Source of the DNA: a virus | Lineage: Duplodnaviria > Heunggongvirae > Uroviricota > Caudoviricetes | IMG/VR virus record: IMGVR_UViG_2585427754_000004 | Direction: 5' to 3' (one strand) | DNA length: 64,000 bases | In this document: one piece after another, positions 635 to 58,969 of the stretch | Layout of the letters: each line of letters starts with the position of its first letter | How positions within the stretch are numbered: the first letter of the stretch is position 1 | Translations under genes and position numbers: made by a program | The notes under the pieces: generated by a model | Database searches by the model: none | What the model was told of the DNA's origin: nothing | The model's input: only the letters and a program-made list of their open reading frames with translations

Positions 635-1417
635 GTGCCAATTGTCGGTGTTCCCGGTTGGATTGGGTCTTCGGCTGTCAGTGTGACAGGCCAGAGATGG
701 ATGAGTGCAGCTCGAACGGCGGTGCAATTGTCTGCTGCTGGGAATATGTCTCAGTTAGCAGGTCGTTCTAAGGAAATTCAGTACAGCATCGGTGCGAATC
801 ATAACTACAACAAAGACACACTGATCAACTATTTAAAATCCCAGGGGGCGACGCCAGTCGTTGTTACCATTACAGGGGATCTGGTGTCGTCCAGTAGCGG
901 CGTGCCATGTTTAGATTTCCCGAGTTCACTTACCAACTCTTATATCAGCCTTGTAATCAACGCAGGTGTGACTGTCTATGGACGCGGTGGCAATGGTGGT
1001 AGTAACGCTGCCGGTGCTGCTGGTGGTAACGCAATTAATAATGGCATCGGTACACGCTTGCGTATTACGAATAATGGTGCAATCGCTGGAGGTGGCGGCG
1101 GCGGTGGCGGCGGTAACAGGGGTAAACTAATATTTGGCGGCGGCGGTGGTCGCCCATTCGGTGCTGGTGGGTCTTCCTCTCATATGAGTTCCGGTGCAAC
1201 TGCTGGTACTATTTCCGCTCCTGGTAAAGGATCTGTTGGTGAGGGGTCTCTTAGTGCATATACAGGCGGTTCGGGTGGTAATGTCGGTGCTGCTGGAGGA
1301 AGATGTAATACTCAAGGTAACGGTACAGAATATAACGGCGGAGCAGCTGGTAAAGCTGTTACTGGTAATGCTCCAACTTGGACTAAAGTTGGGGCAATTT
1401 ACGGCGCTCATGTGTAA
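635..1417 (+). CDS. Glycine-rich protein, candidate tail-fiber adhesin or host-range determinant
   Basis: Sits directly after the tail-fiber gene. Several poly-Gly tracts (GGGGGGGGGN, FGGGGGRPFGAGG) separate short variable segments, as in T2-type gp38 adhesins. Start uncertain: GTG at 635 follows AAGGAG by 7 nt; ORF track gives 578. Confidence 0.4.
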   Translation: MPIVGVPGWIGSSAVSVTGQRWMSAARTAVQLSAAGNMSQLAGRSKEIQYSIGANHNYNKDTLINYLKSQGATPVVVTITGDLVSSSSGVPCLDFPSSLTNSYISLVINAGVTVYGRGGNGGSNAAGAAGGNAINNGIGTRLRITNNGAIAGGGGGGGGGNRGKLIFGGGGGRPFGAGGSSSHMSSGATAGTISAPGKGSVGEGSLSAYTGGSGGNVGAAGGRCNTQGNGTEYNGGAAGKAVTGNAPTWTKVGAIYGAHV

Positions 1418-1479
1418 GTACTTACCTACCAAGTGTGGGCGTTTTATGATATAAAACCGCCATCCCGATTTGACGATTC

Positions 1480-1815
1480 ATGGAGGAAATAATGTCGAAC
1501 GAGATGGCAGGCGTAACGCCAGAGCAGGTAGAGCGCATTGCCGCTATCGTTGCGCGTGAAGTTGTCGGCAAATTAGGTAAGGAGTTGCGTGAGGAAATTG
1601 GCCAGGAGGTCAACGACCAGCTCAAAACCTACTTTGGCGATATGACGCCTTCGCAACACAGCATTCAGCACTCCAACCTGGACAAACTACTTAATCGGCT
1701 AGACGCCATCTCCAGCGGGTTCTTTGGCGGCATTATCTCAAAGATAACGTCGTTCCTGATTACCGCGCTGCTGCTGGGTCTGGCCGCTTATGGCGTGAAG
1801 AATGGACTGCAATAA
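1480..1815 (+). CDS. Small protein with C-terminal transmembrane helix (holin candidate)
   Basis: 111 aa with C-terminal hydrophobic segment ITSFLITALLLGLAAYGV; lies at the head of the lysis cassette. Confidence 0.3.
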   Translation: MEEIMSNEMAGVTPEQVERIAAIVAREVVGKLGKELREEIGQEVNDQLKTYFGDMTPSQHSIQHSNLDKLLNRLDAISSGFFGGIISKITSFLITALLLGLAAYGVKNGLQ

Positions 1816-1828
1816 CAGGAGATCAAGG

Positions 1829-2521
1829 ATGAAAACTCCGAGAGGCATTCGTAATAACAACCCTGGCAACCTCGACAAAGGTTCGCCGTGGCAGGGGCTA
1901 ATCGACAACCCTGCCGAACCGCGCTTTTGCACGTTTAAAGACCCTGTTTGGGGGATTCGTGCGCTGGCGGTGACTCTAATTACCTACCACGATAAACGTC
2001 GCGCAAAAGACGGCACAAGTATCGATACCATTCGTGAAGTTATTGAACGCTGGGCACCGCCGAATGAAAACAATACTGACGCCTACATTAATGAGGTGTC
2101 TAAAGCCGTTGGTGTAACCGCAGACATGATCATCGATCTGCATGATTACGACATCCTTCGACCTTTGGTTGAGGCAATCATTCGCCACGAGAATGGCCGA
2201 GGCCCGCTAAAAACGCTGAACACCTGGTATGCGGCAGAAGTTATTGAGGAAGGTCTGCGTCGAGCTGGCGTTGTTAAGCCGGTGAAAACCGTGAAGGCTG
2301 TTCCTGTAACTAAAGAAACCGCAGGCGCAACTGTTACAGCAGGTATTGGTCTGGCGCAGCTGGCCGATGTTATGCCGCAGGTTTCCGCTGCTATGGATAA
2401 AGCACAAGGTCATATCTCTAGCGGGGATACAGTACGCATCATCTTCGGTATTGCCACTATTGTTGTGGCAGGATTCATTGCCTGGTCGCAGGTAAGAAAA
2501 CACCAGAAAGGGATGGTCTAA
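1829..2521 (+). CDS. Conserved phage protein with N-terminal RGIRNNNPGN motif and C-terminal membrane anchor; lysis-associated candidate
   Basis: ATG at 1829 preceded by AGGAG. C-terminal hydrophobic helix IIFGIATIVVAGFIAWSQV. Sits between the holin candidate and the spanins. Enzymatic class not established. Confidence 0.3.
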   Translation: MKTPRGIRNNNPGNLDKGSPWQGLIDNPAEPRFCTFKDPVWGIRALAVTLITYHDKRRAKDGTSIDTIREVIERWAPPNENNTDAYINEVSKAVGVTADMIIDLHDYDILRPLVEAIIRHENGRGPLKTLNTWYAAEVIEEGLRRAGVVKPVKTVKAVPVTKETAGATVTAGIGLAQLADVMPQVSAAMDKAQGHISSGDTVRIIFGIATIVVAGFIAWSQVRKHQKGMV

Positions 2522-2522
2522 T

Positions 2523-2774
2523 ATGCTAGGCAGCCTGATGACAAAGCTAAAAGTTGCTTTGATTACGCTGGCTGCCGTTCTTTTCGTTCTTGTCGGCGCT
2601 TACACGATGGGCGGGAATGCGGCGCGACGAGCAATGGAAGAGAAGGCAAAACAGGAAGACAGAAAACGACTTCAAAACACAGTGAAAGTGGTGAATGAGA
2701 CGAGCAGTAAAATACGTCAGAAAGATGCTTCTGCCGTTCATCGTGAGTTGTATGATAAGTGGGTGCGTCATTAA
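2523..2774 (+). CDS. Inner-membrane spanin (Rz-like)
   Basis: N-terminal transmembrane segment followed by a charged coiled-coil region; overlaps the next gene in the classic Rz/Rz1 arrangement. Confidence 0.5.
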   Translation: MLGSLMTKLKVALITLAAVLFVLVGAYTMGGNAARRAMEEKAKQEDRKRLQNTVKVVNETSSKIRQKDASAVHRELYDKWVRH

Positions 2775-2910
2775 ACCACAAACAGCCAGCGTGTTGTTCT
2801 GCGATGGGGCTGAGCCTATCTATATCAGCAATAATGATGTAATGACTGAAGAAACCGAACGCCAAATCCTTTTTCACAATACGATGGGAGAGAGGGTTTG
2901 TGGTTGGTGA
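2695..2910 (+). CDS. Outer-membrane lipoprotein spanin (Rz1-like), start embedded in the Rz-like gene
   Basis: Signal peptide with lipobox (MISGC), short mature region with Cys residues, +1-frame overlap with 2523..2774. Confidence 0.5.
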   Translation: MRRAVKYVRKMLLPFIVSCMISGCVIKPQTASVLFCDGAEPIYISNNDVMTEETERQILFHNTMGERVCGW

Positions 2911-2942
2911 TGTCGAAGTTCCCCTCAAATGAGGGGAACACA

Positions 2943-3464
2943 TTATTCGTCGAACAATTTTTCGATAGATTTTGTAGGATAGAACAAAGAACGCTCGTTG
3001 TTACCAACCAGCTGGATAAAGCCTAAACTTTTATAAAACGCCTTGGCTTTGTCATTTAACGCCTCAACGAAAAGTCCATGAATGCCTACAGCAAGAGATG
3101 CATTGTACACAACGCGCATTGCATGTGTTACAAGCATTGAGCCAAATCCTTGACCTTGAAGGGACTTGTCCAAAGCCAGCCTACCCAAAGTAACACTTGG
3201 AACATTCCGATAAGGAACCTTCTTTTGTTTGCTTCTTGAAGGTAAGGACTCCTTTTCAAAACAACTACCTGACAAAGTGTAATATCCTAACACTTTTGGC
3301 CTTTCTTCTTGAGTGCAAAGCACATAAGCACGAAGAATTTTTCCCTCATGCTGCCTTTTTAAGTGGTTGGCTAAAAAGGCGTTTAGTGACTCTTCGCCGC
3401 AATCAAAACCGTTTAGATCATAATCTTTCTCTCCAGAGAAAATCTCTATCGTTGTATTGCTCAC
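2943..3464 (-). CDS. GNAT-family acetyltransferase toxin (TacT/KacT-like) of a type II toxin-antitoxin pair
   Basis: 173 aa with acetyl-CoA-binding signature QGQGFGSMLV; 7 bp downstream of a DUF1778-type antitoxin gene on the same strand. Confidence 0.75.
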   Translation of the reverse strand: MSNTTIEIFSGEKDYDLNGFDCGEESLNAFLANHLKRQHEGKILRAYVLCTQEERPKVLGYYTLSGSCFEKESLPSRSKQKKVPYRNVPSVTLGRLALDKSLQGQGFGSMLVTHAMRVVYNASLAVGIHGLFVEALNDKAKAFYKSLGFIQLVGNNERSLFYPTKSIEKLFDE

Positions 3465-3471
3465 GAGTAAA

Positions 3472-3741
3472 CTACTCCATGCTTTTCAGACGATCAGCAG
3501 CTCGTTTCAGCTTGTCGTTCGGTGCCGGAGGATTGCTTATAGCGTCCATAACCAGATTCCAGGATTCTTCATTCAGAACTAGTCTACGGTGTTGCTCTAT
3601 AACTTTCACGGCACGTTCAGATGCACTGCTAACCATAAACTGAGTAATGCTCTGGTTAGACATTGCGGCAGCTTCCTCGATGATGCTTTTATCGTCATCG
3701 GTTAATCTCAAATCGATGCGCTGCTTTTTTAGTGCTGACAT
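3472..3741 (-). CDS. DUF1778 ribbon-helix-helix antitoxin (TacA/KacA-like)
   Basis: Translation MSALKKQRIDLRLTDDDKSIIEEAA ... NPPAPNDKL is typical of DUF1778 antitoxins. ATG at 3741 (minus strand) preceded by AGGAGG; ORF track extends to 3780. Confidence 0.7.
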   Translation of the reverse strand: MSALKKQRIDLRLTDDDKSIIEEAAAMSNQSITQFMVSSASERAVKVIEQHRRLVLNEESWNLVMDAISNPPAPNDKLKRAADRLKSME

Positions 3742-3752
3742 GTATTCCTCCT

Positions 3753-3779
3753 GATGGCCGTGATGTAGGAAGGCCATCA
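3753..3779. promoter_or_regulatory. Inverted repeat TGATGGCC-N11-GGCCATCA upstream of the antitoxin gene (candidate autoregulatory operator)
   Basis: Perfect 8-bp arms immediately 5' of the antitoxin ribosome-binding site. Confidence 0.35.
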
Positions 3780-4059
3780 ATCTCCTCTGTTCAAACTGAG
3801 TTTTCGACTCAAAAATTACTTTAAAAGGCTATAGCCCATTACGTGTGCATTATCAAATTGTGTACGGCATATCACCGTACTTGTAATATAGATGTCATTG
3901 TTACTTTTTTCAACAGACAAATACAAGCTATGTTTGCCAATTGTTAATCACAACCTACCATTTAACCTTTACACCGCAGCCGTAGGCATTTAGGCTATAT
4001 CACATATAAGAAAACAAGTTGTTTCAGACGATAATTATATACGCAAAGGGAACTCTCCA

Positions 4060-33843: not shown

Positions 33844-34899
33844 CTATTTGCGAGTCTTTGCCTTGCGCAACTCTTCGAGAAGCGCCAGTTCTTCTTTACT
33901 CAACATGACCATTTTGCCTTCTTTTTCGTCAGGCACAACGTCGATAATGTCATCTTGATTCTCATCTGGGAGGCTATATTCCGTCTCATCATTATCGATT
34001 TTTGTTGATATTTGTGCCTGGCGTAACTTTGGCCGCCTATAGTGGATGACGAAGTAGACCGAGTTTCCGCGCTTAACTTCCGTGTAATCGAGATATCCTA
34101 TCTCTCGCAGCTGTTCCATAGCCTTTCTTACCGTCGCATTCTGAGTAATAGTGCGACTTGTCAGATTAAGTCTGGCGCGTAAACGGGCTAGTGATATTGG
34201 TGCCGGATCAGGCGGCAAACTTTCAATAAAAGTATAAAGCGCCTGAGCGGATTCTTTTCTTGAGAGTTCGTTTATAGCCCGGAGTTGCAGAAGAACCTTT
34301 TTGTCGAACTGGTAGAGTTCGAAAATCTTGGGATCTGCTTTCAGTTCGACCGTATCGTGCTTGACACTATATTTTGCCGTTTGCACAAGATGCGTTACGT
34401 AAAACTCATCAGAGCCTTTGCTACGGAACGAGATGGTATTTGTGGCAATACGGCTTAGCGAACTGTCCAGGCGTTTGCGTAACTTCGCTGATGACCTGGC
34501 GGTCGGAATGCCACACAGCCTTACAAACTCAACGAACGGCAACGTGACAGTATCGCCAACGACCTTGTGTTTGGCAAACGCGTGGATTATTCCCACCCAC
34601 GTTTTAAAGTCGTTATCCATATCAAGCCGAAGGCCAGAGATCCTTATGTCTTCGTACCCTTCGGCTTTTGCCAGAGACAGCTGTTTGAGTTCAGCAGAGG
34701 CATCCATAGAGACCATTTGCCCCTTTCTTCCTCTGGATGTCGATTTCAGCGTCGGAACGAAGAGGCCCAGACGCATCAAAGCAACAGGCTGAACAGTGTT
34801 ATTAGTGTTAGGAACCAACGTAACAACTTCGCCTGTCTTTTTATCTGTTTCTGAAAATGCTTCAACGATCGCTATGTTTTTATTGCCGTTTTCGCTCAT
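33844..34899 (-). CDS. repA: Iteron-type plasmid replication initiator (RepA-like)
   Basis: 351 aa with winged-helix-like C-terminal region; flanked on both sides by iterons of the same sequence family; DnaA box and GATC cluster upstream. Confidence 0.55.
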
Positions 34900-34987
34900 T
34901 CCAAATGTCTCTTGTTATTCGACGGCTTTGGTGGCCTTTGCTGATTACAGTGGATAGTAGCACTCATCACAGCGGTTATCCTACCGT

Positions 34988-35059
34988 CTATAGTGGTTTT
35001 TCTCCTCTCTATAGTGGTTGCTTTGCTCCCTATAGTGGATTATTCGCTCTCTATAGTGG
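34988..35059. repeat. Four direct iterons (CTATAGTGG core) at exact 21-bp spacing upstream of repA
   Basis: Core starts at 34988, 35009, 35030, 35051. Confidence 0.7.
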
Positions 35060-35173
35060 ATATCGATCATGTCTGAAGGCAGATGGCACAACGGTTTGAG
35101 GTTGGCGGGGATCTTATTGGGTCTTTATGGGTCTCTTTGGTTCTCTTTGTGATCTGAATTACTGGATCGGGCC

Positions 35174-35182
35174 TGTGGATAA
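35174..35182 (-). promoter_or_regulatory. DnaA box (TTATCCACA on minus strand)
   Basis: TGTGGATAA on the plus strand is a perfect 9-mer consensus; two 8/9 matches nearby (35221..35229, 35548..35556). Confidence 0.5.
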
Positions 35183-35345
35183 AAATCAGAGGATTTCAAG
35201 AACAGGTAACTCTACTCTTCTGTGGATATTTAAGGACATAAGAATCATGACTAAGAGTAGAGTTTAAAATATATCTATTTATATCAGTATGTTAATGAAG
35301 AATTAAGTCATTAAGTTATCCATAAAAGACAATGTGCTCTACTCT

Positions 35346-35440
35346 CTACAGTGGATATATACAGCTCTCCAGAGTGGTTGTTTTACTCTTCATAGCGGTT
35401 ATTCAGCTCTCTACAGAGGTTTCTTTGCTCTCCATAGTGG
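35346..35440. repeat. Second array of five iterons at about 21-bp spacing
   Basis: CTACAGTGG, CAGAGTGG, CATAGCGG, CTACAGAGG, CATAGTGG cores at about 35346, 35369, 35390, 35411, 35432. Confidence 0.6.
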
Positions 35441-35483
35441 ATGGCAACACCCTTTCAGACCAGTAACCGCAACGGCTAGAGGC

Positions 35484-35541
35484 GATCGGGGATCTCTTTG
35501 GATCTTCTATTTGATCTTACTTGGGATCTCTTATTTGGATC
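35484..35541. promoter_or_regulatory. Cluster of six GATC sites in 58 bp (candidate Dam/SeqA-regulated origin region)
   Basis: GATC at 35484, 35491, 35501, 35513, 35525, 35538; a smaller cluster at 35065..35168. Confidence 0.5.
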
Positions 35542-35642
35542 TATCCAGTGGATAACTGGGATAAGTAAAACAGGCAAATGCAGATTAAGGTATGCCTAAT
35601 GAGTTATCGTAGCATCGGCCAATAACTACTGAAAAAACGATT

Positions 35643-49678: not shown

Positions 49679-50488
49679 ATGAGTTCGGTTGAAAATGTAA
49701 TGACAAATGATGATCTGGACGAGCTGACAGCCATGTTGCAATCACTTGATGAACCAGTAAAAAAAGCCGCACAGGTTGAAAATACTGATGATATTGACGA
49801 TCTGCTGCTCGGCCTCGATGCTGGCGTAGCCATGAGTTCTGATGATGTTGCCGAAGAACTGTTCAATGAAGAAAAAGCAGGTGATTTCAGCTCTGCTTTA
49901 AATGAGTTGGAGTTAGCGCATGAGCCTATAAACGTAATTAACGCTGAAAGTGTTGAATCTGCCGAAAACGAGCCAGAACAATTGGGATTGATTGAGGTTG
50001 AAGAGTGTGTTGATGTTAATGATGAATTAAAAGTTCAACAGTCAAATGATAGCAACACAAATAAAAAAGCGCGTACTGCAAGAGGTCCTCGTTTTACTTT
50101 AAGTGATAAAGATGATTCGTTTTTCAATAAAGCAGGCTTAGAAACAGATATTTTCTTAGACGCTTACGAAAACGCGCCTGTCAAAGCAAAGGATAAGATA
50201 TTAAACCTTCTTAATTGGTTTAGCGGAGGTCCAGATATTAGTGTTTACACGGTAATTTCCATGAGACACCTTCTCACAGAAAAGAAGGCTACAAGTAATA
50301 GTATTAAGATTGCTTTAATGAGCAATCCAGAAAAACCGTATCCGCTTAACACTGCGTCAACTCAGGCTGGGCAAATGATGGCTGTATTTCCAGCGACAGG
50401 AATTGCCGTTAGAGACGGTGGAAATCTAACATTGAACGAAGAATCACCGATCGTTAAGAAGTTTGTAGCGGAGTACACTATTGGATGA
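49679..50488 (+). CDS. Highly acidic hypothetical protein
   Basis: N-terminal 120 aa dominated by Asp/Glu; 269 aa. Confidence 0.3.
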   Translation: MSSVENVMTNDDLDELTAMLQSLDEPVKKAAQVENTDDIDDLLLGLDAGVAMSSDDVAEELFNEEKAGDFSSALNELELAHEPINVINAESVESAENEPEQLGLIEVEECVDVNDELKVQQSNDSNTNKKARTARGPRFTLSDKDDSFFNKAGLETDIFLDAYENAPVKAKDKILNLLNWFSGGPDISVYTVISMRHLLTEKKATSNSIKIALMSNPEKPYPLNTASTQAGQMMAVFPATGIAVRDGGNLTLNEESPIVKKFVAEYTIG

Positions 50489-50671
50489 CGTCCCCCTACT
50501 GAAAATAAAGCCCATAGAGAGCTTTATAGTGCTGGGTAAGCCAATCACATATCCAGCACCACAAAAACGCGCCAGAGAGCTTCTCGTTTGCATTTCTGGC
50601 GCGTTTTATTTGATTGCCAGACATAAAATCAAATGCAAAAATAGGTAATCACTTACCTATCGAGAAAGACG

Positions 50672-51265
50672 ATGATTGCAGCCGAAAAAATCAAACAGCG
50701 AAAGCGCGACAACTCTCTTCGTGACCTCTGGAGAACACCTGACTGGCTGTTTTCTGCCATTCAACGTTATCTTGGAGTGACATTTGATGTTGACGTTGCC
50801 TGCAACAAGGACAATGCGAAGCTGCCTAATTTCATAGGCGTTGAGCGTGATGCTTTGAAATCTGAATGGGGACAGCCAGGTACAATTGCCTTCCTCAATC
50901 CACCCTACTCCAAAATCTCCCCCTGGATTGATGCGGCTATACGTGAGCAGGCTCGCGGAGTTACAACAGTGATGCTAATTCCTCAATCCCTCGATACAAA
51001 GTGGTATGAGCGTGCAACAGAGTGTGCGAATGAGACGATTATTCTGTCTGGTGGCCGCGTAGCGTTTGTCGAGCCTGACGTCAATTTGGGTCAGGTAGAA
51101 GTAAACATCAACCCCGGTGGCAGTATGCTCGTTGTTTTTCGAGGATTTTGTCAGGACGCTGGGCACTCTATAAGCAAGATCCCTTTGGATGTCATGAAAA
51201 GTCTGGGAGGGTATGATCCTGCGAATGTGATCAGGAAAAAAAGACCATCAAAGAAGGCTGCTTAG
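50672..51265 (+). CDS. Small phage-type DNA N6-adenine methyltransferase
   Basis: Motif IV NPPYS in a roughly 190-aa protein. Confidence 0.55.
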   Translation: MIAAEKIKQRKRDNSLRDLWRTPDWLFSAIQRYLGVTFDVDVACNKDNAKLPNFIGVERDALKSEWGQPGTIAFLNPPYSKISPWIDAAIREQARGVTTVMLIPQSLDTKWYERATECANETIILSGGRVAFVEPDVNLGQVEVNINPGGSMLVVFRGFCQDAGHSISKIPLDVMKSLGGYDPANVIRKKRPSKKAA

Positions 51266-51286
51266 TTTGTTCTGGCGTCTGTAATT

Positions 51287-51345
51287 AGCCTGCTTCTGTA
51301 TATATAAATAACTACATATTAATTATTAATATACGGAAGCAGGCT
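51287..51345. repeat. AT-rich palindromic element, copy 2 (also a likely terminator)
   Basis: AGCCTGCTTCTGTATATA ... TATACGGAAGCAGGCT followed by TGTTTTA; near-identical arms to the element at 6018..6075. Confidence 0.6.
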
Positions 51346-51427
51346 GTTTTATATCAGAGACTCCCAGACCTGAACACCACTACAGAATCCACTAGAACCC
51401 CTTCCCAGACGCTTTAAAATCGATTTT

Positions 51428-51682
51428 ATGAACCACTTTAAGGAAACCAACATGTCATACCCGACTAATGTCGTTGCGCTCGTAGAGAGCGATTTTCTGG
51501 CCCAGGCTCGTGAAATGATGAAAGATCGTGAGCAGGCTTTCAACTTGTACGAGTGGGCAATTAAGTGCTTACATCTTGGCGAGCATCGCGAACTTGTTGA
51601 ACAGCTTTTAGGTGAGTTGATCAATGAGGTGTTTGCCTTGAATGTTCAACTACATGGTCGAGAAAATAATCAATCACAATGA
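51428..51682 (+). CDS. Hypothetical protein
   Basis: 84-aa ORF preceded by GGAAACC. Confidence 0.3.
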   Translation: MNHFKETNMSYPTNVVALVESDFLAQAREMMKDREQAFNLYEWAIKCLHLGEHRELVEQLLGELINEVFALNVQLHGRENNQSQ

Positions 51683-52263
51683 TAGATAAGTACAAACTAT
51701 TCATAAAGTGAATTGTAAGTGCTAAGATCTGATAGTTTCCAGTCGTAGACTGGAGGCTCGACCTGATGGGTGGGGGTAAGCGTCACTGGCGTCAGGTTTA
51801 AAAAAGCTCACTACCAGCGTAGAACCGGTGCCGTATAGGTGTCGGGGAAGGGGGAACCAAAGTGAGCAGAGACAAGGGTCACTTTATGATTGTCGAGTCT
51901 GGGGTGTTTCGAGAGGTTGAATCCAGTACTCCCCTTCATAAAGTGTGGGAAGATCTCGGTTCTGGGGTGCTGTCATCCATAACTTCCCAAGTCTAAGCTG
52001 GCAGTAGACTTAGACCATAGCTTTTCAGGTTATGAAACGACCAGGTTGGTGAGGAATTTTATACTCACCTCCCTGGGAGAGTATTACCTGAAAAGACAAC
52101 CTCTCACTTCGTTCGAGGTGAACTTCACTCACTTCGTTCGTTCAGTTCAGGTTTATAAAAACCTGTTCTGGGAAGTAATTTGTTTATTTTAATAATTATT
52201 AACACGCACGCGTGTGCGCACGCGCGAGGAAAAATCGGCGCGGCGCTTGATTCAGGAGTTTAT
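51683..52263. other. 580-bp non-coding region with G-rich blocks, a 13-bp direct repeat and an alternating GC palindrome
   Basis: No convincing ORF. CTCACTTCGTTCG at 52103 and 52128; ACACGCACGCGTGTGCGCACGCGCG at 52201..52229; GTCTGGGG repeats. Confidence 0.4.
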
Positions 52264-52854
52264 ATGACGACGAAGACACCAGCCCGATCGCAAGCAAAAA
52301 CTCGCAAAAAAGACAAAAACAAAAATTCTCCCCGCACCAATCCCACAACGCCTGTCGTAGAGTTCAATCCCCAGCTCAAAACCGTGAAAATCTTTAGTGA
52401 TGGCTCTTGCCTTAAAAATCCGGGTGGCCCGGGCGGTTACGGTATCGTTCTCCAGTATCGTGGTGAGGAACGCGAGTTCTCAGATGGTTTTCATAGCACC
52501 ACCAATAACCGCATGGAGATGATGGGGGCACTTATCGGGCTGGAGCGTTTGAAATATCCATGCAACGTTATTTTGCACTCTGATAGCCAGTATCTGAAAA
52601 ACGGCATGACACAGTGGATGAAATGGTGGAAACGCAATGGATGGATGACTTCTGACAAAAAACCGGTAAAGAATGTTGATCTGTGGAAGCGTCTGGATGA
52701 GGCCGCAAGTCGACATAATGTTCGCTGGAAGTGGGTTAAAGGTCACGCCGGGCATCGTGAAAATGAAATATGTGATCGACTCGCGAAGATCGCAGCTTTT
52801 TCAGCAGCAGATATGCCTCACAAGAAAGATATTGGTTTTGTTTATAACAAATAG
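52264..52854 (+). CDS. rnhA: Ribonuclease HI
   Basis: FSDGSC ... GGPGGYG ... HSDSQY ... [18 protein letters not shown] matches RNase H catalytic motifs. Start at MTTKT; ORF track begins at 52180. Confidence 0.8.
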
Positions 52855-53002
52855 TAAGTAAGTGTTTACCTATCATTTTAAATCATGTATCTTATCGGCG
52901 TCAGGATGACAATGTGTCGGTAAGACACAGTTCCAGGATGGAACGAGAAAGGCGGCTGGCAATCGCCAGCCGCAACTCTTTCTGACACTGGATGGAGTCC
53001 AC

Positions 53003-53497
53003 ATGGCACGTCAAACCTATTTCACTTCTGCAACTAAACGTCCTCGTTCACTACGTCAAATTTTGGCCGAATTATTTAGCGGTCGTGTTCTGTCACGTCT
53101 TGATGAACTGGAGACTACCGTTCGGTTGCTGAATGAACGTTTAGATAAGCAAGCGTCAGTTGTTGCGAACGTGGGGGCGATTGTTACCTCTGGTTCTTCA
53201 CACCAAGCGAAAAATGCACGGCCTTTAGTGAAGGAGAAAAACAACAAGGACAGTTCGAATGGAAAATTTTCAAAGAAAGAGGCTGAAACCAATGGCCTAC
53301 GTTCTCATTATAGTTTCACTGGCGACGGTAGCTGTTCCAGCCGGCCAGAGCCTTTTGATGCCGGATTCATCCATCACCACACCTCCGTCGACGACAATTA
53401 CCACCACTCCAGTAGAGCGTCCTGTCACTCTGGATGGGATGACGGTGGATGCGATACCTCAATTTCATCCAGTTACTCAGGATCATGTTGTGACTAA
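53003..53497 (+). CDS. Hypothetical protein (frame conflict with 53292..53510)
   Basis: N-terminal 90 aa look coiled-coil; C-terminal part is Ser/Cys/His-rich and overlaps a second frame that encodes a signal-peptide protein. Confidence 0.25.
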   Translation: MARQTYFTSATKRPRSLRQILAELFSGRVLSRLDELETTVRLLNERLDKQASVVANVGAIVTSGSSHQAKNARPLVKEKNNKDSSNGKFSKKEAETNGLRSHYSFTGDGSCSSRPEPFDAGFIHHHTSVDDNYHHSSRASCHSGWDDGGCDTSISSSYSGSCCD

Positions 53498-53506
53498 GGC
53501 GGTTGT

Positions 53507-53695
53507 ATGAACTTGTTTTCAAATCACTTTGGAAAAATTTGGCTGGCAATTCTGGCCCTCATGGCCGCCGGTTGGGTATCGAACATTATAAAACTTGTTT
53601 GCTCTGGCGATCTCCAGTTTCAGGCTGGCATGACCTTGGCTCGTGTAGTTGGGGTTTTTGTTTTTCCAGTCGGTTCGGTACTTGGTTATTTCTGA
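53507..53695 (+). CDS. Small membrane protein
   Basis: 62 aa, two hydrophobic segments. Confidence 0.3.
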   Translation: MNLFSNHFGKIWLAILALMAAGWVSNIIKLVCSGDLQFQAGMTLARVVGVFVFPVGSVLGYF

Positions 53696-53788
53696 CGGCT
53701 GTTAGTGCATATGCATTGACCATCTTTGCGTAAGCAATTTATGAAACTATAAAACAACTTGTTTTGACAAATAACAAAAGGAAAACAC

Positions 53789-54214
53789 ATGTTAGGTTTC
53801 TTCAAAAAGAAAACTCGTAAAGCTGTTATCGAAGTCAAAAAAATGGAGAACCGTGATGCGGTTGAGGCCACCGTGTGGGGCGCGTACATGATCTCCTATG
53901 CCGACGGCACATGTGACGCAAAAGAAATTGCCATTCTTGAGAAGACAATTGCAGCTCTGCCTGCGTTTTCTCCGTTTGCTGGTGAAATTGCCCAAATGAG
54001 CGCCAATATCCGTGCTCGTTACGAAGCGTCCCCTCGTTCTGCTAATGCACAGGCTATTCGTGAGCTGTCTGATATTGCGGGTACTCCAGAGGCGGTCGAT
54101 GTTCTGTGTCTGTGCCTTGATATTGCCGATCAGGACGGCATTGGCGAACAAGAAGAGCAGGCACTTAAAAAGATCGCCCAGGCGCTTCAGTTGTCACTGG
54201 ATGCTTATCTCTAA
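53789..54214 (+). CDS. TerB-like domain protein
   Basis: MLGFFKKK ... ISYADGTCDAKEIAILEK ... CLCLDIADQDGIGEQEEQALKKIA follows the TerB two-repeat pattern; conserved upstream motif. Confidence 0.45.
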   Translation: MLGFFKKKTRKAVIEVKKMENRDAVEATVWGAYMISYADGTCDAKEIAILEKTIAALPAFSPFAGEIAQMSANIRARYEASPRSANAQAIRELSDIAGTPEAVDVLCLCLDIADQDGIGEQEEQALKKIAQALQLSLDAYL

Positions 54215-54374
54215 TGCTTGAGAGATTCCGGCTTGTGATCGTCATTGCTCTTCTGGTGATGGCGGTGTTGGTGGATTTTACGGGAAAGATGATGTCTGTC
54301 ATTTCTGATGGCGTCCTCATTGGTCTGGCGATCTACTTCGCTTATCCGCTAGTCCGTAAAGCAACGTGTTAATG

Positions 54375-54403
54375 ACAAGGGCCAAATGGCCCTTGTGTTT
54401 CGT
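54375..54403 (+). terminator. Rho-independent terminator
   Basis: ACAAGGGCC-aaat-GGCCCTTGT followed by GTTTCGTT. Confidence 0.6.
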
Positions 54404-54511
54404 TGACCGAAATAGAGAGTTTGCACCTTTACGTTTAGCTTGCTCCCCTTTTATGCCACATCACAATAAAGCCAATAAGAAAACAACTTGTTTAAGCATT
54501 AGGAAAAACAC

Positions 54512-55081
54512 ATGTGCAAGAAATGCAAAGCGATAGCTGATGAACAAAACGCCTTATTCGAAGAAATGGATGCTAATGAACTGGTCAAAATGTTAGCCAT
54601 TCTTCGAGGAATAGAAGACGTTTCCATATTTGAGAGAGTGGTTACAGCACTTAATTTTGAGTCCACCTTTGAAGAGCCAACTCAGGTTGTAGCTTTAGCA
54701 CATCATTTCGGTGTTCATTATCTTGCTGAAAAAGAGCGCGCTGATAAGTTGCAGGCGACTTTGGATATGGTGAGCGAGACTCAACGAACTGATGACACTA
54801 ACAAGAGTGAGGCGATTATTGCCAGCAAAGATCGTGAAATTGCTGGGCTTAAATCCTCTCTAACGATGTTGATGTCTGCGTTCAATCTTATGTCTTCTCA
54901 GGCGGGTTATAAAATGCCATCACTAAACAGCGATGATCCGATGGCCGTTCGTCAGCTTTTGGGAGCAATGGCCGACCAACTCGACGACACAAAGAGTCGG
55001 CTTGAAGACATGATGCGTGAGTTAAGCCATCGACATAACCTCGCAACACAGCCACACAAAGCCTTTCAAAGCTCTAATTGA
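54512..55081 (+). CDS. Hypothetical protein
   Basis: 189-aa ORF with conserved upstream motif. Confidence 0.35.
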   Translation: MCKKCKAIADEQNALFEEMDANELVKMLAILRGIEDVSIFERVVTALNFESTFEEPTQVVALAHHFGVHYLAEKERADKLQATLDMVSETQRTDDTNKSEAIIASKDREIAGLKSSLTMLMSAFNLMSSQAGYKMPSLNSDDPMAVRQLLGAMADQLDDTKSRLEDMMRELSHRHNLATQPHKAFQSSN

Positions 55082-55136
55082 TCTGATATGGCCGCATGAT
55101 CGGCCATATTGTGTTGATAAAAAACAAGGATGAAAA

Positions 55137-55418
55137 ATGGCATACGGTACAGGGATTTACAACAATAAAGGAATTAACGTTACTGGCTTCCTTACTCCTA
55201 TTTTTTTTCTTGATCGATTTACTGCGTCATCAGGCTCTAAGACGTACTCCAATCCGCCACCGGGTAAATCGCTACATGCCGTGTGGTCATTGATGCCTCT
55301 TAACAACGACAACTACATTAATTTACCTGTTCCAACAGTTACTATTAATGGAAATACGGTTAGTTGGTCAAATTTATATACGGGGCTTGGTTCTTACATA
55401 TACACATACTGGGGATAA
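55137..55418 (+). CDS. Hypothetical protein in low-GC segment (contains T8 tract)
   Basis: 93-aa ORF; T8 at 55201..55208; 3' end overlaps the next ORF by 55 nt. Confidence 0.3.
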   Translation: MAYGTGIYNNKGINVTGFLTPIFFLDRFTASSGSKTYSNPPPGKSLHAVWSLMPLNNDNYINLPVPTVTINGNTVSWSNLYTGLGSYIYTYWG

Positions 55419-56035
55419 TTATGTTCGGGATGTCAATTACTCAATCAGATGGAAGTTTGTGGATGAGTCCAGAATTTACTCCGCAAAATCTGATTAATAA
55501 AGGGACAATGTCTACATCTAAAGGTTCTGTTTTTCAAACATCAATCCCATCAAACAAATCATGTTTTTTTTTCATAAAAAGCAGTAATAAGGCGAACATG
55601 ATGTTTATTCATGAGCATAGTAACGGATACAATGCTCTCAGATTGCATCAGGTAAATGGTAGCCCCGGAACAATAACAGTTTATGCTTTTTCTGATATGG
55701 TGTTACCACATTCTGGCTATGGCATTGCCATGTATAACAGCGCAGGCGCAATGGTGTATCACGGTGAGATGATGCCCCTTGATGCGAAACTTATCACTAT
55801 TTCTGACCCTCAATTTACAATAGATATGGGGTATCCATGTGCGGTAATGCCTGCTATGGTTGGGGTATATAACTATAGACGAACCGATTACGACAGACCT
55901 GTCTATGTAACAATGACAGGTGCAACTGGAAACCAAGTATATAACGGTCAATGGTATTCCGGTAATGTCACATGGGATATTAAGAAGATTTATACAAACA
56001 AAATTCTGGTGATAAATACCTCCAAGTATGATTAG
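55364..56035 (+). CDS. Hypothetical aromatic-rich protein in low-GC segment (contains T9 tract)
   Basis: 223-aa ORF; T9 at 55564..55572 encodes CFFF. Confidence 0.35.
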   Translation: MVKFIYGAWFLHIHILGIIMFGMSITQSDGSLWMSPEFTPQNLINKGTMSTSKGSVFQTSIPSNKSCFFFIKSSNKANMMFIHEHSNGYNALRLHQVNGSPGTITVYAFSDMVLPHSGYGIAMYNSAGAMVYHGEMMPLDAKLITISDPQFTIDMGYPCAVMPAMVGVYNYRRTDYDRPVYVTMTGATGNQVYNGQWYSGNVTWDIKKIYTNKILVINTSKYD

Positions 56036-56138
56036 CCAATGCCTTTATTTGAACGATTGCCTGTTTATTTCTATTTAGTACCTTTTCATTTTTGAAATAA
56101 TTGCACCATTAAACAAATCACTTCTTAATGGTGCAATT

Positions 56139-57824
56139 ATGAATACAGCCCTTTCCATCATCGACGATGCCAACTCAAACACTGCTATCGACTATCGGCA
56201 GGAAATGAACGTCATCCACGAAATTGTGGCCGAGTGCGAGAAAGAGATCGCCTTCATGTATCAGGTACACGACTTCGTTTATGGCGACGAACGCCACAAC
56301 ATGATTAATCGCCTGCTGAGACTAAACCATCGACCAGATGAAGATCGCTCGCGTTTAAATCGAGGTTGGTTGGATAAAGTCGATCTGGAATGGGTGAAAC
56401 AGAATATTTGGGCCGAGTACTGGAGTAAGGTCACGGACATGACTAACGTTTTGCTGATCATGCCAGCTTCCCGTCGAGATGAGTGGCGCGAGCAGTTTAT
56501 AGAGGGCAAACAGGAAGTCATCAAAACTGACAGAACCGGCTACCAGATGAAGGTTAAAGAGTTCGTTGGTGTACCGGAGTTCAAAGCAGAAACGGTCATA
56601 CCCACGATGCTTAATTTGCTGAATGACAGGCACAAATATCTCTCTGAGCGCGTGTATGGCTTGTTTAAGGCGCTGAGTCCTGCGCACAAGACAAATAAGA
56701 CAAACGGTTTCAGCGAGCGTCTGATAATCGCTGACTGCATTTCTGATTTCTGGCGGGACAGCGTTAGCGTGAACTATCGCAAAGAGGACTACATCGACGA
56801 TCTGCGTGTCTTGCTTCATTTCTTCGCGCACAAAGAATTTATTACCATCAACCGCACTGCTGAGGTGCTATCAGCTGCGTATCGAGCAAACGACTGCCAG
56901 ACCGGTGACTGGATGAACGTCGATGGAAATCTGATGCGCGTGAAGATGTTCAAGAACGGCAACGTTCACTTTGAAATACATCCTGACGTGGCCTGGAAGT
57001 TGAATGAGGTGCTGGCTTACAGTATGCCTGCTGCAATCCCCGCGCCATGCCGAACTGCGCCAAAAACACGGGCACCAAAGCAGTTCGGGTTAATCCAGAA
57101 GACGATCTCCGTGCCGGTTCGCACTGCGCTTCGTGACGGGCGATTGAGCAAAGACAAAGGCGTATGGTACTTCTCTGATTCAGCTCTCCAGAAGTCGCAG
57201 GTGGAAGAGCTTGAGCGCACACTGAGCTTCATTGGCGGCGTGCAGGAGAAAAAGCACTGGCAGTTCCCGTATGACATCGGCCATACGCTAAATACGATTG
57301 TGGCTACCGGTTTAATACCGGATACAAAATCACACCAGTTCTACCCTACCCCACGCTTGATTGCTGAGTACGTTGCCAGAGCCACTGAATTGAAGCCTGG
57401 TGAGAAGCTGCTGGAGCCTCAAGCCGGACGTGGGGATCTTCTGGCCTATATTAACGCCGATCTGGAAGATGTTACCTGCATAGAAATCGCACCTCTCTTC
57501 GCTGATATCCTGCGTGGAAAAGGGTATACGAACACGATTTGCTGCGACTTCATAAAGTGGTCTGAGGACAACGCAGGTTATCAGTTCGACAAAATCGTTA
57601 TGAACCCGCCGTACTCGCTTGGTCGTCATAGAGAGCACACGCTGGCTGCGCTGGGGCATCTGAAAGTCGGCGGGCGTCTTGTAGCAGTATTGCCGGGCAC
57701 TGCGCCAATACTGGACTGGATGACGATGGATAATTACGTTTATGCCAGAGGGAAGTCGTTTACCAACGAGTTTGAAGACACAGGGATCACAGTCAGCGTA
57801 TACGTTTTCAAACGCGTTAAATGA
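56139..57824 (+). CDS. Large protein with C-terminal SAM-dependent N6-adenine methyltransferase domain
   Basis: Motif I LEPQAGRGDL followed by motif IV MNPPYS in the C-terminal third; about 370-aa N-terminal region of unknown function. Confidence 0.5.
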   Translation: MNTALSIIDDANSNTAIDYRQEMNVIHEIVAECEKEIAFMYQVHDFVYGDERHNMINRLLRLNHRPDEDRSRLNRGWLDKVDLEWVKQNIWAEYWSKVTDMTNVLLIMPASRRDEWREQFIEGKQEVIKTDRTGYQMKVKEFVGVPEFKAETVIPTMLNLLNDRHKYLSERVYGLFKALSPAHKTNKTNGFSERLIIADCISDFWRDSVSVNYRKEDYIDDLRVLLHFFAHKEFITINRTAEVLSAAYRANDCQTGDWMNVDGNLMRVKMFKNGNVHFEIHPDVAWKLNEVLAYSMPAAIPAPCRTAPKTRAPKQFGLIQKTISVPVRTALRDGRLSKDKGVWYFSDSALQKSQVEELERTLSFIGGVQEKKHWQFPYDIGHTLNTIVATGLIPDTKSHQFYPTPRLIAEYVARATELKPGEKLLEPQAGRGDLLAYINADLEDVTCIEIAPLFADILRGKGYTNTICCDFIKWSEDNAGYQFDKIVMNPPYSLGRHREHTLAALGHLKVGGRLVAVLPGTAPILDWMTMDNYVYARGKSFTNEFEDTGITVSVYVFKRVK

Positions 57825-57884
57825 TAGGTAAATACTTACTTAATTTGTGTAAGAATGTAATAACTAAACGATAAGAGAAAACAC

Positions 57885-58589
57885 ATGAACAACCTCCAGT
57901 TAGAGCATTTTAACGTCACAGGCCATTCTGATTTTCCTTTCAAGTTTACATTGAAAGGTTATGCAGAGGATGCGGTAGGCCAGATCATTATTGATAAAGG
58001 CATCGTTAAGTTTGAGGGGGATTTTGATGAATCCGCGAAAACATTCATAGACTTCGTTGCCAAACGTTGGAGCGAGCAATGGAAAGACCTGGAAAAGCGC
58101 GCTAGTGAGTTTGATCGGTTCATGGATGCAATGGATACAGCAAAAGAGGCTCTTGCTGCCGGGACTCCGTTAGATCTGGAGTCACTTTTCAACGGCGAAG
58201 TGGCCTCTGCGATGTTCGCCACCATGTTCGCGGGTGAGTTCGTCCGCAGCGGTGCCAAAAACTACCTTGAGCTGGATTACAACGTCCCTGCAATTGGCGA
58301 TTTCGTCGTTACCATCCAACGCAAAGAAGGTAAGACGCCAGGTGAACGCGTCGCAGAGCTTGAGGCCGTTGTGGATCAGCGTAACGGAGAGTGTGACCGT
58401 TTGATCAACGAGCTTCATGCACTTCGGGAAGAAAGAATATGCGCGGGTAGCAATACACGTAATGCAGCGGATATCTACTTCCAGTTAGTTGAGGAATGCC
58501 AGATTCCACCAGGCGGCTCTCTTGTCGATTACGTCAGACATTTAATGACGGAAGTTAACTCCAGCCATAAAGATGGTGAGGTGCGCTGA
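57885..58589 (+). CDS. Hypothetical protein
   Basis: 234-aa ORF with AAAACACATG initiation sequence. Confidence 0.35.
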   Translation: MNNLQLEHFNVTGHSDFPFKFTLKGYAEDAVGQIIIDKGIVKFEGDFDESAKTFIDFVAKRWSEQWKDLEKRASEFDRFMDAMDTAKEALAAGTPLDLESLFNGEVASAMFATMFAGEFVRSGAKNYLELDYNVPAIGDFVVTIQRKEGKTPGERVAELEAVVDQRNGECDRLINELHALREERICAGSNTRNAADIYFQLVEECQIPPGGSLVDYVRHLMTEVNSSHKDGEVR

Positions 58590-58969
58590 TGTTTGGCATT
58601 GACGCACAGCGTGTAGCCGCTTTTGCAAAAAGCCCTCTTGATAATCCCTTGTCTCGTAGTGAGCAAATGGAGCTGGCAAGGCTTTTTCTTCACATTCAAA
58701 AACAGGCAGACATTTTCAATAACATGCCTAATCAACCTATTCTGGATGGTCACATCCAGATGGTCATTAACAGTCATGAGAAAGGCTGGGCTGCAATCGT
58801 CCCCTGCACAATTACATACAAGTTGGCGAAAGAGGTTCAAGAGTTTCGAAAAGCCAGTGTCGAATCGGAGTCTACCAAAGCCGCAATAAACACTCTTATT
58901 CGCATGGGGTTCACATGGACCGGTGGAGCCTACTGGCAAGCACCTCAACCCATTTTATCCGGCAATTAG
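58589..58969 (+). CDS. Hypothetical protein
   Basis: 126-aa ORF, start overlaps previous stop. Confidence 0.3.
   Translation: MFGIDAQRVAAFAKSPLDNPLSRSEQMELARLFLHIQKQADIFNNMPNQPILDGHIQMVINSHEKGWAAIVPCTITYKLAKEVQEFRKASVESESTKAAINTLIRMGFTWTGGAYWQAPQPILSGN

Follow-up and report, generated by a model that had tools for sequence, protein, structure and literature searches.

The element and its two methyltransferase genes

The window described here is a 64,000-nucleotide stretch of DNA from a virus of the class Caudoviricetes (IMG/VR record IMGVR_UViG_2585427754_000004), of which one strand is considered throughout. It carries two genes for predicted adenine methyltransferases, a small one termed open reading frame (ORF) A and a larger one termed ORF B, whose parts are listed in Table 1. 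An earlier note on this DNA, made from the letters alone, had described both, and translation confirms two + strand reading frames at these positions, each encoding an NPPY motif.

The 8.6 kb around these genes are 98.7% identical, over their full length, to Escherichia phage Cyrano (OV696614), which is the phage-plasmid pLF82 of E. coli LF82, and likewise to phage CMS-2020a. Identity to PhiR41_1 is 96%, and Salmonella phage SSU5 is 83% identical over 60% of the stretch. Because of these identities, the element is classed by sequence as an SSU5-like phage-plasmid. The counterparts of ORF A are CYRAN_79 in Cyrano and SSU5_088 in SSU5, and those of ORF B are CYRAN_90 and SSU5_095. Both SSU5 proteins are labelled “DNA methyltransferase” and the Cyrano copies are also already annotated, which means that both genes are ordinary members of this group of elements.

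ORF A and ORF B lie 4.9 kb apart, within a block of DNA-metabolism genes, presumably of the early/middle lytic phase, encoding RNR, MazG, ThyX, PNK, DHFR, a DnaQ-like exonuclease and RNase H. The genes between them encode RNase H, a TerB/TciA-like protein, a Cor-like protein and other unrelated products. The interval 50672-57824 is therefore not one locus.

Table 1. Positions of the two methyltransferase genes, their parts and other features of the window
Feature	Position	Strand	Basis or remark
RepA (Rep3_N/Rep3_C)	33844-34899	-	domain match
Six GATC in 58 bp, plasmid origin	35484..35541	.	adjoins RepA, 21-bp iterons and the DnaA-box-like AGTGGATAA at 35547
ORF A, minimal phage-type DNA N6-adenine methyltransferase (predicted)	50672..51265	+	197 aa; PF05869 / TIGR01712
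ORF A motif IV NPPY (aa 76-79, within FLNPPYS)	50897..50908	+	translation; N76, P77 and P78 invariant in alignment
Perfect 16-bp inverted repeat, ATAATTGCACCATTAA, 12-nt loop, TTAATGGTGCAATTAT	56097..56140	+	sequence; 3′ arm ends on AU of the ORF B start codon
ORF B, DUF4942 methyltransferase (predicted)	56139..57824	+	561 aa
ORF B aa 1-90, variable acidic helical N-terminal segment	56139..56408	+	low conservation; phrog_25525, phrog_16000; model helices 20-48 and 52-62
ORF B aa 91-305, DUF4942 core	56409..57053	+	strongly conserved
ORF B aa 306-395, basic (pI 9.6) fast-evolving linker and small alpha/beta module before the catalytic core	57054..57323	+	candidate specificity region
ORF B aa 396-561 and stop, class I SAM-dependent amino-methyltransferase core, gamma-type motif order	57324..57824	+	no C-terminal target-recognition domain
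ORF B motif I EPQAGRG (aa 426-432), SAM-binding loop	57414..57434	+	conservation, 133 representatives
ORF B motif IV NPPY (aa 489-492; VMNPPYS at aa 487-493)	57603..57614	+	conservation across homologs
aa, amino acids; pI, isoelectric point; SAM, S-adenosylmethionine.

ORF A belongs to the phage-type Dam family

The resemblance of the smaller protein to phage Dam-like enzymes, which the earlier note had pointed out, holds against the cut-offs of two family models. ORF A scores 131.8 bits against PF05869 “Dam” (cut-off 28.1) and 113.9 bits against TIGR01712, the NCBIfam equivalog “phage N-6-adenine-methyltransferase” (cut-off 97.05), and it matches phrog_111 with an E-value of 1.6e-65. Matches of the two proteins to their families reach E-values between 1e-20 and 1e-38, which is above the level of chance motif matches.

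When ORF A is aligned with its SSU5 orthologue and with the T1, HK140 and Aaphi23 enzymes, it retains all of the invariant columns (D18, T22, G35, D41, A43, N48, N76-P77-P78 and S80, and further M101-L102, P104, W111, E121, G128-R129 and F132). The three motifs that mark membership, D-x-W-x-T-P, D-x-D-x-A and a motif IV of the form (N/D)PP(Y/F), are all present. With the phage-type Dam enzymes of T1, the Stx phage VT-2 and HP1, ORF A thus shares its family hidden Markov models, a minimal architecture of about 170 amino acids and the motifs D-x-W-x-T-P, D-x-D-x-A and NPPYS. Like them it is phage-borne, lies near replication genes and has no restriction enzyme beside it; it differs from them in a basic C-terminal tail of 25 residues. 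No relatives of ORF A were found in the PDB by sequence or by profile, and a literature search on PF05869 returned nothing specific.

Characterised enzymes of the PF05869 family (T1, VT-2 and HP1) methylate GATC, and by this kinship ORF A probably recognises GATC as well; the original papers on the characterised enzymes can be found in the reference list of PMC7556043. Its identity to T1 Dam is 25% (E 1e-18), and that to the methyltransferase of HK140 and several Stx-converting phages is about 39%. Because identity is only 25-39%, GATC specificity is a likely property of the enzyme rather than an assured one.

The catalytic core of ORF B

The methyltransferase domain of ORF B had been placed in the C-terminal third of the protein, and the core indeed occupies only the last ~166 residues (aa ~396-561), or 30% of the chain. 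Motifs I to IV are invariant across 30 and across 133 homologs. Among the 133 representatives, E426 and G430 of motif I are conserved in 100% and P427, A429 and G432 in at least 96%, while in motif IV N489 and P491 are conserved in 100% and P490 in 98%, with tyrosine or phenylalanine at position 492. A lack of SAM-binding residues, which the earlier note had named among the findings that would refute its reading, does not apply: ORF A keeps every residue invariant in its alignment, and the motif residues of ORF B are likewise kept. These alignments support the view that both proteins are amino-methyltransferases of the N6-adenine type with intact SAM-binding and catalytic motifs.

The core has the motif order X-I-II-III-IV of gamma-class enzymes, with a SAM-binding loop, the acidic residue of motif II and NPPY. 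The C-terminal target-recognition domain of that class is absent, and in the structural model the final core strand, aa 551-559, closes the chain of 561 residues. Any recognition function of ORF B must therefore lie N-terminal to the core or in insertions within it.

In sequence, the nearest relatives of the core are DNA methyltransferases carried by mobile elements and by defence systems. The profile phrog_6263, labelled “DNA methyltransferase”, matches ORF B from end to end. The core also matches the PADLOC profiles mad2 (E 1e-15, limited to aa 394-523) and MTase_II (E 2e-10), and the methyltransferase segments of very long PHROG profiles (1,394-3,925 positions). Membership in a MADS defence system was considered and rejected: the other mad genes are missing, and none of six neighbouring ORFs has a PADLOC match.

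By structure, the best match of the core is METTL5, an rRNA N6-methyladenine (m6A) enzyme (Z 19.2), followed by PH1948 (18.0), M.BseCI (17.8), M.TaqI (17.5), CamA (16.5, at 27% identity) and Type I HsdM subunits (15-17). This fold fits RNA and DNA m6A enzymes alike. Because an rRNA enzyme is the best structural match and DNA enzymes are close behind it, DNA as the methyl acceptor of ORF B is favoured by context rather than proven. The alternative is that ORF B modifies RNA (m6A or N2-methylguanosine in rRNA or tRNA) or protein, with its DUF4942 domain serving as a substrate adaptor. We consider this improbable. By sequence, the core matches DNA methyltransferases of mobile elements most strongly (mad2, MTase_II, the PHROG family and YdcA of IncF plasmids), and the DNA enzymes BseCI, TaqI, CamA and HsdM follow METTL5 within 1-3 Z units. 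Homologs of ORF B are also found beside other DNA methyltransferases, in phage and plasmid modules for replication or early functions.

The DUF4942 domain and its family

The earlier note had described the larger protein as a methyltransferase fused to a large unknown N-terminal domain. Such a domain is present; however, it is a named Pfam family, PF13708 (DUF4942), which matches aa 140-295 with 72.2 bits (cut-off 25), and the fusion is the hallmark of a widespread family rather than private to this protein. A HMMER search of the whole library with aa 1-395 alone retrieved 615 clusters at 50% identity, 415 of them at E <= 1e-10. Among the best matches retrieved, 133 of 149 are 480-620 amino acids long, and nearly all of the best 150 are 500-590 amino acids long. 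The DUF4942 domain is therefore nearly always paired with a core of about 165 amino acids. An alignment of 30 sequences is likewise collinear from end to end, with the DUF4942 domain followed by the methyltransferase core.

The DUF4942-methyltransferases are thus a large family of class I SAM-dependent enzymes, widespread on plasmids, prophages and genomic islands, in which ORF B is a full-length, collinear member. It is 30-31% identical to the copies on IncHI1 and IncHI2 plasmids and 32-39% identical to prophage copies, and the NCBI database contains a protein that is 100% identical to it and belongs to a cluster of 1,384 sequences. Nothing sets ORF B apart from the family except its variable first ~90 residues. 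No characterised DUF4942-methyltransferase was found in a literature search, where DUF4942 came up in just four papers, each time in passing, and no solved structural relative of the domain was found.

Conservation in this family is not confined to the catalytic core. Across the 133 full-length representatives, conservation of the DUF4942 core (aa ~81-305) equals that of the catalytic core; W95, L179, S180, H183, T185, N186, W258, H277, N289 and L292 are 100% invariant, and D221, R223, D262 and E279 are nearly so. The variable stretches of the protein are aa 1-80, 121-140, 201-220, 241-260, 321-360 and 521-540. Among SSU5-like elements, DUF4942 changes at a slower pace than the remainder of ORF B: compared with Klebsiella-type alleles, aa 91-305 are 76-78% identical, while aa 396-561 are only 49-54% identical. 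Moreover, two alleles are chimeric (P0044 and P0045), with aa 1-305 of the E. coli/Citrobacter type (97%) and aa 306-561 of the Klebsiella type (99-100%). Their breakpoint near aa 305 indicates, at the sequence level, that recombination exchanged the catalytic half at the DUF4942 boundary.

We infer from this pattern that DUF4942 is a conserved substrate- or partner-binding module and not a variable reader of sequence. A sequence preference of ORF B, if there is any, would more likely be set by aa 306-395 and the insertion at aa 521-540 than by DUF4942. A different possibility is that ORF B combines modification with an effector in a single chain, in the manner of Type IIG or defence-type enzymes, with DUF4942 as a second catalytic domain (a nuclease or other). 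The invariant polar residues S180, H183, T185, N186, D221, R223, D262, H277 and N289, in a domain conserved like the catalytic core, would suit such a role, which is nevertheless judged highly improbable.

The first 60-157 residues of ORF B (56139-56609) also occur by themselves, as short ORFs, on other plasmids and phages (P0121, P0123, P0124, P0201 and P0206; plasmid matches H35, H38, H39 and H57). Such ORFs are remnants left by truncation or else a small module in its own right.

Restriction partners and the context of homologs

As the earlier note had proposed, neither gene has a restriction partner nearby. No restriction or defence match to Pfam or PADLOC was found among the neighbours between 47.8 and 60.7 kb. 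No restriction enzyme is named among the 126 annotated features of Cyrano, a result that holds by annotation only, with about half of the features labelled “hypothetical”. A cognate endonuclease, adjacent or elsewhere in the same element, was thus found for neither ORF. In addition, no recognisable endonuclease partner accompanies the distant homologs of ORF B in seven other contexts. Three of these are IncHI1, IncHI2 and a 116-kb IncHI-like contig; the early regions of two lambdoid prophages, a phage contig and a helicase/primase module make up the rest.

Every context examined is a phage, plasmid or prophage, and five of the seven hold another orphan DNA methyltransferase within ~3 kb (PF02086 Dam, PF01555 or PF00145). 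On IncHI2, IncHI1 and the IncHI-like contig, a canonical Dam-family PF02086 gene and a full-length DUF4942-methyltransferase gene are divergent, with the Dam-family gene some 1.5-2 kb upstream of the other. These pairs (L004 5351-9635, L005 5327-9608 and L016 4655-8638) are close to replication initiator genes. The pairing of a Dam-type with a DUF4942-type enzyme thus recurs on unrelated replicons, with a different Dam family.

Expression in the plasmid state

The activity of both genes in the plasmid state can be judged from published RNA sequencing of LF82 carrying Cyrano (S1 Table of PMC9928086), given as normalised counts (fragments per kilobase per million, plus 5) with a floor of 4.99. 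In overnight LB culture, the ORF A gene CYRAN_79 has counts of 7.06 and 4.99 (mean 6.0) and the ORF B gene CYRAN_90 has counts of 8.63 and 7.06 (mean 7.8), compared to a mean of 133 for RepA and 96 for a putative repressor (PMC9928086). RepA and the repressor are thus 15-20-fold above the two methyltransferase genes. In four other conditions, ORF A does not exceed log2 4.14, and ORF B peaks at log2 5.97, only inside macrophages at 6 h (PMC9928086). Since both genes are near the floor, they are essentially off while Cyrano replicates as a plasmid in the lysogen.

In lysogens, M.EcoGII, Mom and P1 dmt are silent in the same way, and they act during phage development (PMC12707154). The silence of ORF A and ORF B argues against a part in the control of plasmid replication and for self-methylation in the lytic phase.

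The start of ORF B is marked by an inverted repeat (Table 1) whose RNA would form a hairpin of -20.6 kcal/mol (z = -5.8; none of 200 shuffles was as good). SSU5 keeps only the 3′ arm (TTAATGGTGCAAT). The repeat may be a hairpin that occludes translation of a potentially toxic methylase, or an operator. Scans for promoters and terminators gave sites no more frequent than in shuffles, and an Rfam scan of 50000-58600 gave no match near any gathering score.

The plasmid origin and its GATC sites

The earlier note had suggested that the smaller enzyme could methylate GATC clusters at the origin, and that both enzymes might serve anti-restriction or replication control. The origin (34963-35555) consists of two tandem copies, each of ~380 bp, of one module, which contains 21-bp iterons (CTCTCTATAGTGGWT), G(G/A)TCT repeats at a spacing of 10-12 bp and a DnaA-box-like site (TGTGGATAA at 35174 and AGTGGATAA at 35547). 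In the copy proximal to repA, the repeats have decayed to GGGTCT or GGTTCT and three GATC sites remain, while the distal copy keeps six. Six GATC sites in 60 bp are reached in only 0.1% of random placements. In the window as a whole, GATC is neither enriched nor depleted (278 sites observed, 259.5 ± 15.6 expected). The cluster at the origin is therefore real, and it resembles the oriR of P1, which depends on Dam methylation.

Outside the origin there is a single cluster of at least three GATC sites per 60 bp, with three sites in 52 bp at 51178-51229, the 3′ end of the ORF A gene itself. It is probably due to chance, because such clusters are common under random placement.

An origin of this kind invites the explanation that ORF A methylates its GATC repeats and thereby licenses or times RepA-dependent initiation, as Dam does at P1 oriR. 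Six GATC sites in 58 bp beside iterons and a DnaA-box-like site are unusual, and ORF A belongs to the family of T1 Dam, a GATC methylase. P1 moreover depends on Dam/Dmt methylation (PMC12707154). However, in the Cyrano lysogen ORF A stands at 6.0 (floor 5.0) against 133 for RepA, and the plasmid is maintained at 5.5 copies per cell (PMC9928086); it therefore replicates without measurable expression of ORF A. Moreover, 15 kb separate the ORF A gene, a member of the lytic DNA-metabolism block, from the origin. Finally, the Dam of the E. coli host methylates GATC, and host Dam does so in every known host genus. Replication control is accordingly considered unlikely, and a housekeeping role of ORF A at the origin is unlikely for the same reasons, namely its silence in the plasmid state, the availability of host Dam and the distance of the gene. 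It is possible that ORF A tops up GATC methylation during lytic replication.

Comparison with other methyltransferases of mobile elements

A relative of the ORF B core is YdcA (187 amino acids) of the IncF/IncI leading region, which is homologous to aa 400-517 of ORF B (31% identity, E 2e-14) and shares with it a family-specific histidine after NPP[YF]. Like ORF B, YdcA is an orphan on a mobile element, and it sits among genes for anti-restriction and SOS inhibition; it differs in consisting of the core alone, without DUF4942. In an IncF leading region (L003, 4506-6477), YdcA directly follows YdbA, a DUF3560 protein of 453 amino acids, and the two are flanked by an ArdB/KlcA-type antirestriction gene and by ssb/psiB/psiA. 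The YdbA-YdcA pair is another instance of a small methyltransferase core beside a domain of unknown function. The idea that ORF B is a fusion of YdbA and YdcA was rejected: YdcA is homologous to the core, but YdbA has no similarity to the N-terminal domain.

Adenine methylase modules of the TaqI/EcoKI-like type have been proposed as a core counter-restriction device of the polyvalent proteins of phages and plasmids (Iyer et al., PMC5512222). The ORF B core shares with such modules (P1 DarB type) its profile matches and its structural match to TaqI, BseCI and HsdM. Unlike polyvalent proteins, ORF B has no SF2 helicase and no LPD36, is only 561 amino acids long and shows no sign of being packaged into the virion.

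Orphan adenine methyltransferases that protect transferred DNA include M.EcoGIX and M.BceJIII, which are single-strand-specific and promiscuous (SAY), and the non-specific phage enzymes of the M.EcoGII and phiP27 L24 type (PMC7736820, PMC4288162, PMC12707154). Their likeness to ORF A and ORF B is a functional analogy only, as they are of a different family. The M.EcoGIX-like protein of IncF is a beta-class PF01555 enzyme, which BLASTP relates to ORF A and the ORF B core only at E 0.6. phiP27 L24, a relative of PhiOS31_p25, which is non-specific by experiment, likewise has no BLASTP similarity to either protein (E 0.07 or worse). Membership of ORF A or ORF B in the M.EcoGIX family or the M.EcoGII/phiP27 L24 type was rejected on these comparisons.

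P1 Dmt is an orphan Dam-like enzyme of a phage-plasmid that acts in lytic development, and both the origin and the pac site of P1 use GATC methylation (PMC12707154). The likeness of Dmt to ORF A is drawn from this description. We know of no packaging role of GATC methylation in SSU5-like elements. A literature search found no methylome data for pHCM2, SSU5 or Cyrano.

Proposed role of the two enzymes

With moderate confidence, we propose that ORF A and ORF B are independent DNA adenine methyltransferases, acting without restriction partners, that are off in the plasmid state and methylate the DNA of the element itself during the lytic phase, before packaging, as an anti-restriction measure. 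Of the two roles suggested by the earlier note, anti-restriction is thus a reasonable one, while control of plasmid replication is disfavoured by the expression of ORF A at the floor and by the presence of host Dam.

In this model, both genes would be kept off while the element lives as a plasmid and would presumably be switched on with its replication genes after induction or infection. Newly replicated phage DNA would then be methylated by the two enzymes before packaging, and the progeny genomes would enter the next cell with protective m6A marks. ORF A would keep GATC sites fully methylated when replication outruns host Dam, and the DUF4942 module would position ORF B on its DNA substrate.

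Several points weigh against this proposal. In Dam+ Enterobacterales, the host enzyme makes a phage GATC methylase redundant as long as Dam is not limiting. The identity of ORF A to the enzymes of T1 and of HK140 and the Stx phages is no more than 25-39%, which leaves its GATC specificity unassured. We infer lytic-phase expression from silence in the lysogen and from the position of the genes. Target-recognition domains are typically far less conserved than DUF4942, whose invariant residues include histidine, aspartate and asparagine and whose role may be other than DNA binding.

A more specific and doubtful idea is that DUF4942, instead of reading sequence in the conventional way, couples a TaqI-like methyltransferase to a state of the DNA or to a partner, for instance to replication forks, to DNA that is single-stranded or entering, or to the replisome of the element, or that it has a second catalytic activity. 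If such coupling were true, the family would consist of broad, weakly sequence-specific “stealth” methylases, similar to M.EcoGIX and M.EcoGII in role but not in ancestry. The pairing with Dam-type enzymes in SSU5-like elements, IncHI1, IncHI2 and the IncHI-like contig would then reflect a two-enzyme strategy of methylation.

These results confirm a routine annotation, namely that SSU5-like phage-plasmids encode two orphan adenine methyltransferases. Such phage-plasmids, which in some cases bear resistance genes, are common in E. coli, Salmonella and Klebsiella. Identifying the target of the DUF4942-methyltransferases would help to predict which restriction systems are evaded by the elements that encode them, and this evasion bears on the host range both of phage-plasmids and of IncHI resistance plasmids.

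Other genes between ORF A and ORF B

Products encoded between the methyltransferase genes (53789-54214 and 55364-56035) include a TerB-like protein, similar to TciA of P1 (phrog_632), and a homolog of the T1/N15 “membrane associated protein” (phrog_425), with ~78% DNA identity to the phages JenP1 and JenP2. These are probably superinfection-exclusion or moron genes with no tie to methylation. A 44-codon ORF, CYRAN_81 in Cyrano (about 51862-51996 in the window), lies between the ORF A gene and RNase H. Its region has no match in Rfam. The ORF is among the few strongly expressed genes of the Cyrano lysogen, with a count of 117, 12-fold over the local background (PMC9928086), and might be a small toxin, a regulator or a small RNA.

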